Shown here: piece after piece, positions 10,511-27,458 of the stretch
Layout: each line of letters starts with the position of its first letter
How positions within the stretch are numbered: the stretch's first letter is position 1
Source: Candidatus Sherwoodlollariibacterium unditelluris
GTDB taxonomy: Bacteria; Omnitrophota; Gorgyraeia; Gygaellales; Profunditerraquicolaceae
Reading direction: 5' to 3'
DNA: 33,637 nucleotides
Assembly (NCBI GenBank): GCA_002771995.1
Contig: PCRK01000026.1
Coordinates: 1 to 33,637 of the forward strand
Notes under the pieces: model-generated
What the model was told of the DNA's origin: nothing
Database searches by the model: none
The model's input: the letters and a program-made list of their open reading frames with translations, nothing else
Made by a program: the position numbers and the translations under genes

Positions 10511-11458
10511 ATGGCCAGACTTGATTTTGAAAAACCCATTGTTGAGCTTGAGAAGAAAATTCAAGAACTCAAGCATTTTATTTCAGATAAGAAGATCGAT
10601 CTTTCTTCCGAGGTTAAAAAGCTGGAAGATAAGCTTGAGGACTTAAAGAAAGACACCTACACTAATCTTACCCCTTGGCAGATGGTTCAACTTGCCCGGC
10701 ATCCTCAAAGGCCATACACATTAGATTACATAAATATTTTGATGACAGATTTTATGGAACTCCACGGAGATAGGCTTTTCTCCGATGATAAGGCTATTGT
10801 TTCAGGGTTAGCAAGGTTAGATAAGCAGAAGGTTGTGGTTATTGGGCATCAAAAAGGCCGGGATACAAAAGAAAATCTTAAGTGTAATTTCGGCTGCGCT
10901 CATCCGGAGGGTTATCGTAAGGCCTTAAGGATGATGCAGCTGGCCGAAGAATTTAATCTCCCGGTTATAATTTTTATTGATACACCCGGGGCTTATCCGG
11001 GGATAGGAGCGGAAGAGCGCGGGCAGTCTCAGGCAATCGCTACCAATTTAAGAGAGATGGTTTCTATAGCTACTCCGATAATCTCTATAGTCATTGGCGA
11101 GGGCGGATCAGGGGGGGCATTGGGGATAGGGGTTGCGGACCGAGTTTATGTATTAGAAAATTCGTATTATTCAGTTATATCTCCTGAAGGTTGCGCCGCT
11201 ATATTATGGAAAGATGGATCAAAGGCTCCTGAGGCAGCGGCAGCTTTGAAACTAACCGGGGAAGATCTTTTAAGGCTTAAGGTTATTGATGCGGTTATCC
11301 CCGAGCCCTTAGGCGGGGCGCATCGCAATCCTGAAAAGACAGCGCAGAATATAAAAGAAGTTTTGGTTAAAGAGATAAAAGAGCTAAAAAATTTTAAGAA
11401 AGAAGACCTCCTTAAGGCTAGGTATAATAAATTTCGCGGTATGGGAGTTGTGGCATGA
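10511..11458 (+). CDS. accA: Acetyl-CoA carboxylase carboxyltransferase alpha subunit
   Basis: LDFEKPI, ARHPQRP, ELHGDR, PEGYRKA, DTPGAYPG, GEGGSGGAL, YSVISPEGCAAILW. Confidence 0.97.
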   Translation: MARLDFEKPIVELEKKIQELKHFISDKKIDLSSEVKKLEDKLEDLKKDTYTNLTPWQMVQLARHPQRPYTLDYINILMTDFMELHGDRLFSDDKAIVSGLARLDKQKVVVIGHQKGRDTKENLKCNFGCAHPEGYRKALRMMQLAEEFNLPVIIFIDTPGAYPGIGAEERGQSQAIATNLREMVSIATPIISIVIGEGGSGGALGIGVADRVYVLENSYYSVISPEGCAAILWKDGSKAPEAAAALKLTGEDLLRLKVIDAVIPEPLGGAHRNPEKTAQNIKEVLVKEIKELKNFKKEDLLKARYNKFRGMGVVA

Positions 11459-11970
11459 TTGAACAAGAGTTATTACTATTGGGGCTTTTACGCGAAGGCC
11501 CTAAGCATGGCTATGAGATAAAAATTAAAGTTAAGCAGATCCTTTTTTTGTTTGCCGGGATTGAGCTTAAATCCGTATACTATCCCTTAAAAGTATTGGA
11601 ACAAAAAGGCTTGATAGCCAAAAGAATAGCTAAGCTTGGCAGAAGGCCACAGCGCATTGTTTATACCTTGACCGTAAAGGGTAGGAGCCGTTTTGACGAT
11701 CTATTAAGTAAGAGCATTCTACAGCTTAAGCGTCCGCAGTTTAGCCTGGACCTAAGCCTATATTTCATGCATTATTTAAAACCTTCCTCTGCCCGGCGCC
11801 GGGTTCGCGCCAGGCTGCGTATTTTGAATAAGATAGCGTTTGGTTTAACGCAGATGTCTAAGTCTAAGGCAGGTAAGAAACCATTTTCTTTAGCCCGGAT
11901 TCTTGAGCATAATCTTAAAATGCTTCAGGCCGAATCCGATTTCCTCTCTAATTTAATTAAAACCCTATAG
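11455..11970 (+). CDS. PadR-family transcriptional regulator
   Basis: LLGLLREGPKHGYEI, YYPLKVLEQKGLI, VYTLTVKGR; overlaps the accA stop codon (ATGA). Confidence 0.88.
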   Translation: MIEQELLLLGLLREGPKHGYEIKIKVKQILFLFAGIELKSVYYPLKVLEQKGLIAKRIAKLGRRPQRIVYTLTVKGRSRFDDLLSKSILQLKRPQFSLDLSLYFMHYLKPSSARRRVRARLRILNKIAFGLTQMSKSKAGKKPFSLARILEHNLKMLQAESDFLSNLIKTL

Positions 11971-12012
11971 AGAACAGTGTATTGTTTGCAATTTCCCATT
12001 GTATTTTTTCTC

Positions 12013-12072
12013 TTGACAAAGGTTGAACTATTTTTATAATATAATTAAATTTAAATAGTAAAATTTTACTAT
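12013..12072 (+). promoter_or_regulatory. Consensus sigma70 promoter plus perfect 18-bp palindromic operator
   Basis: TTGACA(12013-18)-N16-TATAAT(12035-40); ATAGTAAAA|TTTTACTAT at 12055-12072, 3 nt before ATG 12076. Confidence 0.75.
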
Positions 12073-25251: not shown

Positions 25252-26735
25252 TGCCGCTTTATCCGCTATATATAAACGGAAGATTTATTGAAACTAGCGA
25301 ACGGCAAAATGTGCTTAATCCGTCTACGGGTAAAGTAATCGCTCAAGCTTGCCTGGCTAAGGATTCGGATGTGGATCTGGCTATAGCCAGCGCACGGGAG
25401 GCCTTTGATAAAGGTAGTTGGCCTAAGCTGCCTTTAGATGAGCGCAAGAAATTTATCTTTAAGATTGCTCAAGGAATCCTCAATAAGGCGGGGGATTTAG
25501 CAAAGTTGGAGACGGAAAATGCCGGTAAGCCCATTAAGGAAACCACCTTTATGGATGTGCCTTCAGCTGCCAAGGCTTTTGAGTATGTGGCTAATAATTT
25601 TGAAAGCTATCTGGTTAGTGAAAACTTGAATATTTCAGAAGAGGCCAAGGCAAAGTTATCCCGCGAGCCTATGGGTGTAGTGGTTTTGATTATTCCCTGG
25701 AATTATCCTTTGCTAATTGCTTCTTGGAAACTAGCTTCAGCGCTTGCCGCAGGCAATACTGTAGTCTTAAAGCCGTCCAGCTTGACCTCTTTGACTGCGT
25801 TTGAGTTAGGTAAAATTATCCACCAGGCAGGTTTACCCGCGGGAGTGGTTAATATCGTAAACGCGAGCGGCACAAAGATAGGCGAGAAACTCTGTTCTGA
25901 TAAAAGAGTGGATATGGTTTCTTTTACCGGGAGTAACGAGGTAGGTAAACATATCTTAGAGTATTCTTCCAAGAATGTTAAGAAATTAATTATGGAACTG
26001 GGTGGAAAGTCCGCAAGCTTAATCTTTTCCGATGTTGATATAGATATGGTAGTGAACAGCTCTCTTTGCTCCATATTTTTAAATCAGGGCCAGATGTGTA
26101 CGGCCATGTCGCGCATATTTGTGCAGGATAGCCTGTATAATAAATTTGTAGCTAATTTTGTTGAGAAGGCCCAGCGCATAAAGCTTGGGGTAGCTAGTAA
26201 CCATGAGACTCAGATGGGCCCTTTAATTACCGATAGCCAGCGTAAGAAAGTCATTGTCTACTTAGAGAAAGCCAAGGCGGAAGGGGCAAAGATATTATGC
26301 GGAGGAAAGATTCCTCAGGCCCCGGAATTAAAGAACGGTTATTTCTTTGAGCCTACGGTTATAACCGGGGTAAATCCGCATATGCATATTTTTAAGGAAG
26401 AAGTATTTGGGCCCGTAGCTATAGTCGGTAAATTTTCTAGTGCTGAAGAAGCAGTAGAATTAGCTAATGATTCGGATTTTGCTTTAGCCAGTTGTATCTG
26501 GAGTAGGGATTTAAGCCTAGCCGAGGGTTTAGCTAAAAGAATTAATGCCGGGACTATCTGGATTAATACTTATGGCATGTTTTATAATCGGGCCCCTTAC
26601 GGAGGGTTTAAGCAAAGCGGGTTTGGCAAGGAGCTTGGTAAAGAAGGATTCTTAGAGTATACCCGTCTTAAGAATGTGGTGCTGGATCAATCTCCTGATG
26701 CAAAGCCGCTGGTTAATTATTGGTACGGATTCTAA
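25248..26735 (+). CDS. NAD(P)-dependent aldehyde dehydrogenase
   Basis: IPWNYP, LKPS, FTGS, MELGGKS, NQGQMC, EEVFGP, GGFKQSG. Confidence 0.95.
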   Translation: MMPLYPLYINGRFIETSERQNVLNPSTGKVIAQACLAKDSDVDLAIASAREAFDKGSWPKLPLDERKKFIFKIAQGILNKAGDLAKLETENAGKPIKETTFMDVPSAAKAFEYVANNFESYLVSENLNISEEAKAKLSREPMGVVVLIIPWNYPLLIASWKLASALAAGNTVVLKPSSLTSLTAFELGKIIHQAGLPAGVVNIVNASGTKIGEKLCSDKRVDMVSFTGSNEVGKHILEYSSKNVKKLIMELGGKSASLIFSDVDIDMVVNSSLCSIFLNQGQMCTAMSRIFVQDSLYNKFVANFVEKAQRIKLGVASNHETQMGPLITDSQRKKVIVYLEKAKAEGAKILCGGKIPQAPELKNGYFFEPTVITGVNPHMHIFKEEVFGPVAIVGKFSSAEEAVELANDSDFALASCIWSRDLSLAEGLAKRINAGTIWINTYGMFYNRAPYGGFKQSGFGKELGKEGFLEYTRLKNVVLDQSPDAKPLVNYWYGF

Positions 26736-26741
26736 ATAATT

Positions 26742-27458
26742 ATGATTAAAACTTTTGTCTCAATAGCCATTTGGGTTTGCAGTGTAATATTAACCATGGC
26801 CGTTTGCTTTGCCATTTTCTTTTTTCGGGTCATTCTTTATCCATTTGATAAAAAGAGAAAAATTGCGCATATGCAGGGTTTTTGGTGGGCGGACTGCATT
26901 ATTCGTTTAAACCCATATTGGAAGTTAAAAGTAAACGGCCTTGAAAATATTGATTACCACAAGACTTATGTGGTAATCGCTAACCATCAGAGCCTGGCGG
27001 ATATAATAATACTTTACAAGACGCGTATGCAGTTTAAATGGATTGCCAAAGAGAGCTTATTTAAAGTACCTTTTATCGGTTGGAGCCTCTCCCTTTCTGA
27101 GCATATAAAATTAGCCCGCGGAGAATATTCTAGCATTAAGAAGGCCTATCGGAAAGCGGCAGAGTGGCTTAGGAAGGATATCTCGGTTTTGATCTTCCCC
27201 GAAGGAACGCGCAGCGATAACGGCGCAATGAATGTTTTCCAAAATGGCGCATTTAAATTAGCGATAAGAGAAAAGAAGCCGATTCTGCCTATCCGCATAA
27301 AAGGGACTCATAATGTTATGCCCAAAGGCAGTTGGATATTTAAATCTAAAGTTTCAATAAGTATTACTGTTTTGCCTGCTATTGATACGGCTGAGTTTAA
27401 CCCAGGTGATTTTGCTAAACTTAGAGATATGGCTTTTGTTAAAATCGCGGGTGCCTGA
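26742..27458 (+). CDS. PlsC-like lysophospholipid acyltransferase
   Basis: NHQSLAD (HX4D), AKESLF..P, FPEGTRS. Confidence 0.9.
   Translation: MIKTFVSIAIWVCSVILTMAVCFAIFFFRVILYPFDKKRKIAHMQGFWWADCIIRLNPYWKLKVNGLENIDYHKTYVVIANHQSLADIIILYKTRMQFKWIAKESLFKVPFIGWSLSLSEHIKLARGEYSSIKKAYRKAAEWLRKDISVLIFPEGTRSDNGAMNVFQNGAFKLAIREKKPILPIRIKGTHNVMPKGSWIFKSKVSISITVLPAIDTAEFNPGDFAKLRDMAFVKIAGA

Follow-up and report, generated by a model that had tools for sequence, protein, structure and literature searches.

A conserved gene cluster of uncultured Omnitrophota predicted to encode an oxygen-independent type II aromatic polyketide pathway

Results

Gene content of the locus

The subject of this work is a gene cluster at positions 11455-27458 of contig PCRK01000026.1 from Candidatus Sherwoodlollariibacterium unditelluris (assembly GCA_002771995.1), whose genes suggest an oxygen-independent type II aromatic polyketide pathway, inherited in one class of Omnitrophota under strong purifying selection, a reading to which we give a probability of about 0.7. 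The window, i.e. the whole stretch of 33,637 nt that was analyzed, is a complete contig (C81) of a 190-contig, 1.35 Mb Omnitrophota metagenome-assembled genome (MAG) with an estimated completeness of 94.8%, and near-identical DNA is present in groundwater and aquifer metagenomes; the runs listed for it included none of RNA, which has no bearing on whether the genes are expressed. All genes of the cluster lie on the plus strand, and the junctions from 12076 to 27458 are overlaps or gaps of 1-157 nt. Pfam and NCBIfam searches recovered every gene named in the first-pass annotation of this DNA, each in its place and on the plus strand. That gene list was incomplete, leaving six genes in the range unnamed: those for a 91-residue protein, a phosphorylase, an MtnA-like isomerase, an aldolase-SCP2 fusion, an aldehyde dehydrogenase and PlsC. 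The features needed first are these:

12076..12351, plus strand: DUF2621/PCP_red-related 91-residue all-helical protein, the first gene of the conserved block
12348..13355, plus strand: ApbA/PanE-like NAD(P)H reductase (PF02558, 104 bits; PF08546, 70.6 bits; TIGR00745, 168.6 bits, cut-off 141)
13357..13998, plus strand: TIGR04076 protein (TIGR04076, 98.9 bits, cut-off 33)
14000..15259, plus strand: ketosynthase (KS) of the KSalpha type, assigned by active-site columns, tree and PDB ranking
15249..16481, plus strand: KS partner (KSbeta) of the chain-length factor (CLF) type, Cys-less, assigned by tree and active-site pattern
16492..17952, plus strand: B12-binding radical S-adenosylmethionine (SAM) enzyme, BchE/HpnJ-like, class B (PF04055, PF02310)
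17997..18233, plus strand: acyl carrier protein (ACP; PF00550, 33.7 bits; GVDS serine motif)
18233..19036, plus strand: PF04199 metal-dependent cyclase (100.2 bits; HxGTHxDxxxH, motif VHVGTHLDYSFH)
19153..19593, plus strand: single-domain TcmN/WhiE-type aromatase/cyclase (ARO/CYC) of the SRPBCC fold, assigned by PDB matches
19594..19610, no strand: junction lacking the MFS_1 transporter gene that stands here in 40/56 related loci
19611..20387, plus strand: classical short-chain dehydrogenase/reductase (SDR; PF00106, 172 bits)
21605..22513, plus strand: Amidohydro_2 enzyme of the ACMSD/LigW/gamma-resorcylate decarboxylase group (PF04909, 81 bits)

The stop of the 91-residue gene overlaps the start of the ApbA gene; a fusion of these two genes in L008 was considered and discarded, as they are separated by a stop codon. 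The last 11 nt of the KS gene are shared with the CLF gene. Scanned open reading frames (ORFs) of the window had no match to flavin oxygenase, P450, glycosyltransferase, transporter, malonyl transacylase or phosphopantetheinyl transferase (PPTase) families. The lack of an oxygenase noted earlier extends to the scanned extra genes of related clusters, where none was found either. The main comparison set consisted of 80 close loci, picked by KS similarity, and 7 distant loci of Omnitrophota (L denotes a locus and G a genome in the labels used below).

Ketosynthase and chain-length factor

The KS carries its Cys in the motif LSTGCTAGT, and its active-site columns for Cys, His, Lys and His are CHKH, as they are in 6/6 distant Omnitrophota KSs. 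The CLF, with the motif ADRASS, has R-D-K-D in those four columns, Asp taking the place of both His residues. Both proteins were placed in a careful tree of 73 rows (LG+G4, ultrafast bootstrap and SH-aLRT support), with E. coli FabF and FabB, the aryl-polyene KSs of CFT073, three Streptomyces and three non-actinomycete plasmid clusters as references, and including the genome's own FabF, six distant Omnitrophota pairs and representatives from a search of 1.84 billion proteins. In the Streptomyces references the KS lies beside an annotated "ketosynthase chain-length factor" and, variously, TcmI cyclase, cupin or aromatase/cyclase genes.

This phylogeny, set beforehand as the refuting test of the aromatic assignment, clusters the pair with aromatic KSalpha and CLF proteins and not with FabF or aryl-polyene KSs. 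The Omnitrophota KS group (support 100/100) is nested in a 35-row KSalpha clade (100/98) with Streptomyces, Azospirillum, Bacillus and Priestia KSs, and the Omnitrophota partner group (100/100) is nested in a 14-row CLF clade (100/99) with Streptomyces CLFs. E. coli FabF and FabB, the genome's own FabF and both CFT073 aryl-polyene KSs fall outside the two clades, and a quick tree of 140 rows agrees in topology. Signs of an aryl-polyene or highly reducing polyketide synthase (PKS) were not found: such KSs lie elsewhere in the tree than the window KS, and no dehydratase family was matched in the block. Among PDB sequences the KS ranks act KSalpha (379 bits) and AntD at 376 (375.7) bits above the best FabF (360 bits) and Iga11 (241 bits), and in a search of plasmids the top ones among 811 records with a KS match were aromatic type II PKS clusters.

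A specialized lipid pathway, whether fatty acid synthase-like, polyene-forming or of the antiSMASH "ladderane" type, could be read from some of the same scores. Neither protein reaches the FabF equivalog TIGR03150 (457.4 bits for the KS and 373.8 for its partner, cut-off 493.75); the KS comes near it, and exceeds the FabF-type NCBIfam subfamily model NF005589 (446.8 bits, cut-off 387). The top PDB matches of the CLF are FabFs (277 bits), above act CLF (247 bits), and because of this ranking its placement rests on the tree and the active-site pattern. Upstream there is an AccA gene, downstream there are PlsC and AsmA-like genes, and a Cariaco Basin study describes, in its published account, expressed antiSMASH "ladderane" clusters in Omnitrophota MAGs (PMC9902471). 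Such a pathway is nevertheless highly improbable: the tree sets both proteins with aromatic KSalpha and CLF, the block has no dehydratase or enoyl reductase gene, the cluster encodes a TcmN-type ARO/CYC that keeps the catalytic residues, the ladderane-type model TIGR04072 gives the radical SAM enzyme 67.6 bits, short of its cut-off of 360, and AccA and PlsC are unlinked to the cluster in distant loci.

The window CLF has Arg where characterized actinomycete CLFs have the priming Gln. This column is Arg in five and Lys in two of the seven aligned Omnitrophota CLFs (the window and six distant ones), Arg in Azospirillum, Bacillus and Priestia, and Gln in the three Streptomyces CLFs; a motif count over 40 full-length Omnitrophota CLFs gave 30 with Arg, one with Lys and nine unmatched by the narrow pattern used. 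AntE is described as having Asp at this position (PMC6638757). The Gln is therefore not universal outside Actinobacteria, given Arg or Lys in Omnitrophota, Arg in the plasmid CLFs and Asp in AntE.

The top KS match in the library of 1.84 billion proteins, P0003 (869 residues), is a natural KS-CLF fusion, the N-terminal half of which groups with KSalpha and the C-terminal half with CLFs. P0006, P0009, P0017 and others are similar, and further fusions of about 800 residues cluster with aryl-polyene-type KSs.

Cyclases, decarboxylase and reductases

All seven PDB matches of the SRPBCC protein are TcmN/WhiE-type polyketide ARO/CYC chains (E ~5e-24, 88 bits). The alignment with TcmN is full-length, and Y35 and R64 of the window protein line up with a Tyr and an Arg of TcmN that we take to be its catalytic pair, Y35 and R69. 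Together with the placement of both proteins in the 73-row tree, these matches bear out the identification of the locus as an aromatic type II PKS. The PF04199 cyclase had weak matches only in the PDB; we take its family to be that of the "OxyN-type" cyclase of the den cluster. PDB matches of the Amidohydro_2 enzyme were ACMSD (79 bits), 5-carboxyvanillate decarboxylase (78 bits) and gamma-resorcylate decarboxylase (67 bits), which suggest that it is likely a non-oxidative aromatic-acid decarboxylase. The SDR matched generic SDRs, with no polyketide ketoreductase among the 16 PDB matches listed, and a C-9 ketoreductase role is thus unsupported because the matches are generic only.

Conservation and distribution

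The run from the 91-residue gene to the PF04199 cyclase was present in all 45 related loci of at least 15 kb, and it continued through the SDR gene in 43 of them, the other two stopping at the locus edge. In distant loci the gene set is kept in 6/7, with a changed order in which the radical SAM gene follows the SDR gene. The radical SAM gene is the most conserved of the block, with a median identity to the window of 91% (59 loci), followed by the SDR (88%), KS (85%, inflated because the close loci were picked by KS similarity), TIGR04076 protein (84%), phosphorylase (84%) and CLF (82%). Median values for housekeeping proteins are 84% for FolE, 78% for AccA, 64% for ComM and 56% for MnmE.

A scan of one genome per prokaryote species gave 395 KS relatives, the best 80 of which are 81-91% identical to the window KS; these 80 are labeled as Candidatus Omnitrophota/Omnitrophica (68), Planctomycetales MAGs (11) and "bacterium" (1). 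CLF orthologues (at least 54% identity) occur in 122 of 401 sampled Omnitrophota genomes, a count made by hand from the match table sorted by E-value, where a bimodal gap separates 54% from the next, FabF-like matches at 41% or less. All but one of the 122 positive genomes (the exception being G002) belong to the window's own class, and in a sample of one genome per genus of the family the cluster was found in 38/60 genera. Judged by its conservation, its distribution and the distant loci, the cluster is evidently old in the lineage, strongly constrained and repeatedly lost.

One locus, L091 (G143:C1:981000-1000900), from a single-contig Omnitrophota genome, has the CLF, ACP, cyclase, SRPBCC, MFS, SDR, radical SAM and decarboxylase genes. 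Its stretch of 19.9 kb has no KS, TIGR04076, ApbA or 91-residue gene alongside, and extra ORFs for secreted or tetratricopeptide repeat-like proteins are interspersed. Two other loci have additional genes between the decarboxylase and MtnA-like genes, a class IV aminotransferase gene (L087:2742-3545) and a SAM-dependent methyltransferase gene (L089:1073-1696).

Host genome and the transporter junction

Family scans of the genome found no haem-copper oxidase (COX1), no cytochrome bd oxidase and no UbiA-family prenyltransferase, with the limit set by its completeness of 94.8%. In its 1.35 Mb, radical SAM domains were matched 17 times and Proton_antipo_M by a single gene. Anaerobic life of the host is plausible, not proven, because neither the oxidases nor the UbiA family were found in a genome of this completeness; the earlier view of a non-actinomycete, probably anaerobic host agrees with these results. 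A FabF and FabD pair is adjacent on contig C124, away from the cluster, and the only PPTase gene found in the genome, of the AcpS type, also lies outside the window.

GC content across the window is flat (0.37-0.46) with no composition break, in agreement with the first-pass annotation. Recent horizontal transfer into this genome was considered and rejected in view of the flat GC, the monophyletic Omnitrophota KS and CLF groups and the lack of a mobility gene. The sole mobile or phage hint in the window is a 255-residue ORF at 32649-33416 on the minus strand, with a weak Terminase_5/helix-turn-helix match (22.5 bits, cut-off 20.3).

In distant loci a gene for a transporter of the major facilitator superfamily (MFS_1, about 375 codons; 110.9 and 144.7 bits) lies between the SRPBCC and SDR genes. 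It stands at this junction in 40 of the 56 Omnitrophota loci that span both neighbours. Fifteen of the 16 loci without it have a gap of 9-83 nt, as in the window, and L071 has 2.9 kb of other sequence. No homologue of the MFS gene was found in the window's genome (tblastn, E<1e-3). The junction 19593/19611 is bridged without difference by contigs of four metagenome runs, and because these contigs bridge it unchanged, the loss of the gene is not an assembly fault. By comparison with its relatives, the window is evidently a variant that lost the MFS gene. The presence of this gene elsewhere would be compatible with export of the product.

The first-pass annotation had argued from the lack of a pump that the product is kept in the cell. 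This argument did not survive the comparison, as 40/56 orthologous loci carry an MFS_1 transporter and the window lost its gene; the main support for a cell-retained product is removed because the relatives hold the transporter within the cluster. The same enzymology could still yield a retained redox carrier or pigment, for instance a polyketide quinone replacing the isoprenoid quinones that the host cannot make. This would fit the missing UbiA family and terminal oxidases, conservation on a par with housekeeping genes, the transporter-less cluster in a genome without a homologue of the relatives' MFS gene, and the even composition of the window. We nonetheless regard it as unlikely, given the in-cluster MFS_1 gene of most related loci, a distribution (122/401 genomes, 38/60 family genera) that fits a core respiratory role poorly, and the lack of any linked quinone-using respiratory enzyme in a genome with a single Proton_antipo_M gene.

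Radical SAM enzyme and two small conserved proteins

The radical SAM gene likely starts at ATG 16492 (486 residues) and not at GTG 16441, which is probably too far upstream because the best 120 relatives all begin at or near the equivalent of this ATG (mostly 486 residues, range 454-490); the L001 orthologue does likewise. All of these 120 relatives are orthologues at 73-94% identity, and none comes from a known pathway. The best NCBIfam match is BchE TIGR02026 (213.5 bits), far under the equivalog cut-off of 481.35; HpnJ, likewise among the nearest families, is also well short of its cut-off. A tblastn search against plasmids found BchE/HpnJ-like genes at 30% identity or less only, with uninformative context. 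Our first guess for this enzyme is C-methylation and our second is a BchE-like oxidation or cyclization with oxygen from water, which is the source of oxygen in BchE chemistry.

Orthologues of the 91-residue protein match DUF2621 in 29/30 cases (best E 1.6e-9) and PCP_red (PF08369) in 16/30 (best E 9e-4). Its AlphaFold2 model has a pLDDT of 90.7, and a fold search against the PDB gave nothing below E 0.16 (the second-ranked match, Nostoc 2l09 at E 0.23, was not counted). The TIGR04076 protein consists of two tandem repeats, each carrying a TCPDGG motif along with Cys and His residues that do not vary; the residues invariant in the alignment are C41, H43, H58, C64 and C97 in one set and C143, C165, H170 and C199 in the other, and suggest that the protein probably holds a metal site. 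Its AlphaFold2 model has a pLDDT of 82.7. Here a fold search against the PDB gave no match below E 0.4 (TM at most 0.25), the ESM Atlas returned Omnitrophota clusters only and no structure, tblastn against plasmids gave no match, and a search for shorter homologues found mostly fragments of the same Omnitrophota protein.

Downstream module and acyl ligase

Genes matching PF01048, PF01008 and PF00596 follow the decarboxylase gene in a row, as listed here with their neighbours:

22578..23327, plus strand: DeoD/uridine-phosphorylase-like nucleoside phosphorylase (PF01048, 119 bits)
23324..24250, plus strand: MtnA-like (5-deoxy/5-methylthio)ribose-1-phosphate isomerase (PF01008, 186.8 bits; TIGR00524, 198 bits, cut-off 186)
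24247..25251, plus strand: class II aldolase-SCP2 fusion (PF00596, 115.7 bits; PF02036, 27.5 bits, cut-off 21.3)
25248..26735, plus strand: NAD(P)+ aldehyde dehydrogenase (PF00171, 553.6 bits)
29308..30810, plus strand: AMP-binding acyl ligase, beyond the range of the first-pass annotation (PF00501, 281.6 bits; PF13193, 80.3 bits)

The cluster phosphorylase matches NCBIfam uridine and DeoD-type models, all below their cut-offs. The genome has a second PNP_UDP_1 gene (G000:C26:16996-17727) and a second, longer IF-2B/MtnA gene (G000:C60:4077-5147, among alr, tsaB, tsaE, thiL-like and metG), which are likely the housekeeping versions of the cluster-linked genes. The distribution of the cluster-linked forms was counted in a family sample of 61 genomes, 39 of them CLF-positive and 22 CLF-negative:

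Cluster-type MtnA isomerase (62-82% identity): CLF-positive 37/39, CLF-negative 2/22
Aldolase-SCP2 long form: CLF-positive 37/39, CLF-negative 2/22
Short aldolase without SCP2: CLF-positive 0/39, CLF-negative 10/22

These counts overstate the case, because related genomes are not independent. The other MtnA paralogue (38-46% identity) is present in nearly all 61 genomes. The module also occurs in two genomes in which no CLF was detected, G412 and G430, exceptions that may reflect incomplete assemblies. The module adjoins the cluster through rearrangements, on either side, and the aldehyde dehydrogenase gene is beside that of the aldolase also in L078, L087, L092 and L093.

A phosphorylase, an MtnA and a class II aldolase together make up the 5'-deoxynucleoside dihydroxyacetone phosphate (DHAP) shunt as described in published accounts (PMC10986504, PMC6079011). 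On balance, the module of the cluster probably represents a dedicated disposal line for the 5'-deoxyadenosine formed in a radical SAM-dependent pathway.

The ligase gene is a probable cluster member because it directly adjoins the cluster in five loci (L080, L087, L089, L090 and L091). It is a candidate for loading the ACP or a starter, by analogy with AntG, a ligase reported to load the ACP and to be required for the minimal PKS (PMC6638757).

We have kept another idea for these genes because the SCP2 domain, the aldehyde dehydrogenase and the ligase are unexplained by disposal. The phosphorylase, MtnA-like isomerase, aldolase-SCP2 fusion, aldehyde dehydrogenase and ligase may themselves be biosynthetic, trimming a 5'-deoxyadenosyl adduct of a hydrophobic intermediate. 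A radical SAM enzyme would adenosylate the polyketide or its starter, and the ribose would be cut to a two-carbon acid or carboxymethyl group, or to a starter loaded on the ACP, with futalosine chemistry as the model. The extra paralogues that travel with the PKS (the MtnA and the aldolase-SCP2 each 37/39 versus 2/22), the adjacency of the module through rearrangements, the restriction of the SCP2 domain, which binds hydrophobic ligands, to the cluster-linked aldolase form, and a CLF without the priming Gln all speak for it; the aldehyde dehydrogenase followed by the ligase would make a coherent path from aldehyde to acid to acyl-ACP. We consider it quite improbable all the same, since the known adenosylating radical SAM enzymes are, to our knowledge, not B12-binding, the co-occurrence counts are inflated by common descent, and G412 and G430 hold the module without a detected CLF. 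Moreover, the gene trio exactly matches the DHAP shunt as published (PMC10986504, PMC6079011).

Neighbouring genes and repeats

The remaining genes in and beside the range are the following:

10511..11458, plus strand: AccA, acetyl-CoA carboxylase carboxyltransferase alpha (PF03255, 510 bits), context only
11455..11970, plus strand: PadR-family regulator (PF03551, 46.9 bits)
20545..21156, plus strand: secreted CBM_11-like protein (PF03425, 68.4 bits) with a signal-peptide-like N-terminus
21153..21605, plus strand: Lys/Glu-rich 150-residue protein, without Pfam match and poorly conserved (median identity 52%)
26742..27458, plus strand: PlsC-type acyltransferase (PF01553, 93.5 bits)

AccA is a possible source of malonyl-CoA; its gene lies upstream of the cluster in many, not all, close loci and was not seen beside the cluster in distant loci. 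The PadR protein, with a match in 40/80 close loci (median identity 63%) and none seen in the 7 distant loci, is likely the cluster regulator in this family. The CBM_11-like gene is variably present, with a match in 29/80 close loci, and is probably outside the pathway. The PlsC and AsmA-like genes were rejected as cluster members, being unlinked in the 7 distant loci. A right border at 27458, as drawn earlier, does not hold: PlsC is not beside the cluster in rearranged relatives, and the AMP-ligase at 29308-30810 is linked in several.

Several repeats were noticed in the window. A tandem 26-nt direct repeat (88% identical) lies at 27474-27525 between the PlsC and DUF748/AsmA-like genes. The gap between the cyclase and SRPBCC genes holds a GC-rich element of 59 nt (19050-19108) that resembles a dispersed intergenic repeat; at least seven more copies (95-98% identity) lie on C112, C60, C118, C56, C88, C103 and C110, depth spikes mark it in metagenome contigs, and a 24-nt inverted repeat occupies its flanks (19021-19044 / 19109-19132). 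A hairpin occurs in two copies, at 13370-13424 and 21160-21214, with a loop of about 27 nt between arms of 14 nt (ATTTCTAACGGGGT and its complement); with a two-mismatch match at 32564, there are five matches versus 0.28 expected by chance. One copy lies within the first 70 nt of the TIGR04076 ORF, and the start codons of the TIGR04076 and 150-residue ORFs are doubtful because the hairpin copies fall within their predicted N-termini.

Discussion

Proposed pathway

The genes described above can be arranged into a tentative route. The housekeeping FabD and the single AcpS-type PPTase would serve the ACP, and the AMP-ligase may load it, as AntG does in the Photorhabdus anthraquinone system; loading by a ligase would fit, because the CLF has Arg in place of the actinomycete priming Gln. 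KS and CLF would make an unreduced poly-beta-ketone, the first ring of which would be closed and aromatized by the TcmN-type cyclase and later rings closed by the PF04199 cyclase. The decarboxylase would then take off the terminal carboxylate, and the SDR and ApbA reductases would adjust keto groups. The B12 radical SAM enzyme might carry out the C-H chemistry that is done in aerobes by oxygenases and SAM methyltransferases, and the extra phosphorylase, MtnA-like isomerase, aldolase-SCP2 fusion and aldehyde dehydrogenase would remove the inhibitory 5'-deoxyadenosine as a dedicated DHAP shunt. In most relatives the in-cluster MFS protein would move the product across the inner membrane; its gene is lost in the window genome. 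The product is probably a small polyphenol, an anthrone or an anthraquinone-like compound, which might serve as a weapon, signal, shuttle or pigment.

A number of points weigh against an oxygen-independent aromatic pathway or against parts of this route. The pathway is a prediction from gene content. The KS and CLF have the FabF-leaning scores given above, the CLF lacks the priming Gln, and the KS identity is inflated by the choice of loci. The SRPBCC protein scores only at the Pfam gathering threshold (27.4 vs 27.4), the SDR is not near known polyketide ketoreductases, and L091 has a CLF without an adjacent KS. The roles assigned to the ApbA reductase, the radical SAM enzyme, the TIGR04076 protein and the 91-residue protein are guesses, and fold searches with the two small proteins came back empty. 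The SCP2 domain on the aldolase is unaccounted for by simple disposal of 5'-deoxyadenosine. Finally, the sole PPTase found is of the AcpS type, while the AcpS and EntD of E. coli are reported to activate AntF inefficiently (PMC6638757).

Aromatic type II polyketides have been studied almost wholly in aerobic actinomycetes, where oxygenases shape them. The genes of this cluster point to the same core machinery in an uncultured phylum with genomes of 1-2 Mb that is probably anaerobic and may depend on hosts; in about 30% of the genomes sampled the machinery is present, and its conservation appears to match that of housekeeping genes. Its tailoring genes are unusual: they encode a B12 radical SAM enzyme, a TIGR04076 protein rich in Cys and His, a PCP_red-like protein and a putative non-oxidative decarboxylase. 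The cluster opens to test the tailoring of aromatic polyketides without O2, the function of the TIGR04076 protein, and the question of why a route for a radical SAM by-product exists in a second copy that is linked to a biosynthetic cluster and has a lipid-binding domain fused to it. A compact co-directional set of about 10 kb is available for expression and may offer a chemical handle on Omnitrophota biology.

Comparison with known systems

Novelty is lower than the first-pass annotation implied. Type II PKS clusters without oxygenases have been described from anaerobes for dendrubin (den) and for the clostridial clostrubin and wexrubicin (PMC7693217), and a 2023 catalogue includes "Candidatus Omnitrophica" among 14 phyla with KS-CLF pairs, with no further description in its published account (PMC10132072). 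In the main texts of the literature searched, supplements aside, there was no description of the radical SAM/TIGR04076/PCP_red-like tailoring set, of the linked shunt paralogues or of the distribution at the phylum level, and a bioRxiv paper on KS evolution (10.64898/2026.07.16.738910) mentions neither Omnitrophota nor radical SAM enzymes nor anaerobes.

The den cluster of Dendrosporobacter quercicolus, like those for clostrubin and wexrubicin, resembles the window in being a type II PKS of a non-actinobacterial strict anaerobe; this likeness to den and the clostrubin (clr) cluster is drawn from published descriptions. As described, den shares with the window KS, CLF and ACP, TcmN-type and OxyN-type cyclases, one oxidoreductase and the lack of a methyltransferase or oxygenase gene (PMC7693217). 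It differs in having a didomain TcmN-TcmN protein where the window has a single-domain one, and its published description reports no B12 radical SAM, TIGR04076, PCP_red-like, ApbA, decarboxylase or DHAP-shunt genes.

The AQ-256 system AntA-I of Photorhabdus (PDB 6smo) includes AntD, the second-best PDB match of the window KS. By its published account (PMC6638757), its CLF likewise lacks the priming Gln (Asp in AntE, Arg in the window), and its AMP-ligase AntG acts with the minimal PKS, as the linked ligase of the window might. AntE itself is a poor match to the window CLF (137.8 bits, partial), and the Ant cluster is described with a PPTase of its own and without a radical SAM enzyme, unlike the window.

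The best plasmid KS matches (45-47% identity) are those of Azospirillum brasilense Sp7 p3, Bacillus bombysepticus and Priestia megaterium (L081, L082 and L095). Their CLFs share the Arg of the window CLF in an (A/S)DRAS motif, and the Priestia cluster also has AMP-ligase, "cyclase family" and SRPBCC genes. Unlike the window, the Azospirillum and Bacillus clusters have annotated oxygenase-type genes (an ABM monooxygenase and a FAD oxidoreductase, respectively). The Bacillus and Priestia clusters have cupin and class I methyltransferase genes, and that of Priestia has no annotated oxygenase in the stretch compared. Radical SAM and TIGR04076 genes are missing from the compared stretches of all three, and the records give no characterized product.

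TcmN and WhiE-ORFVI (PDB 2rer, 3tvr) align with the window SRPBCC protein over its full length; the window protein stands alone, without an O-methyltransferase domain. BchE, the anaerobic Mg-protoporphyrin monomethyl ester cyclase of class B, has B12-binding and radical SAM domains, as does the window enzyme. The block also has a PCP_red-like small protein alongside its BchE-like enzyme, and the PCP_red domain is otherwise known from protochlorophyllide reductase. The window enzyme is unlike BchE in scoring far below 481 bits, in its identity of 30% or less to plasmid BchE genes and in having no tetrapyrrole context.

The published DHAP shunt (PMC10986504, PMC6079011), as described, likewise has the phosphorylase, MtnA-type isomerase and class II aldolase genes in a row, and that of the window adjoins a gene for a radical SAM enzyme that would supply its substrate. 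The window phosphorylase is DeoD/uridine-phosphorylase-like rather than MtnP. The window copies further differ from the published shunt in being second paralogues tied to a PKS, with an SCP2 domain on the aldolase and an aldehyde dehydrogenase gene following it.

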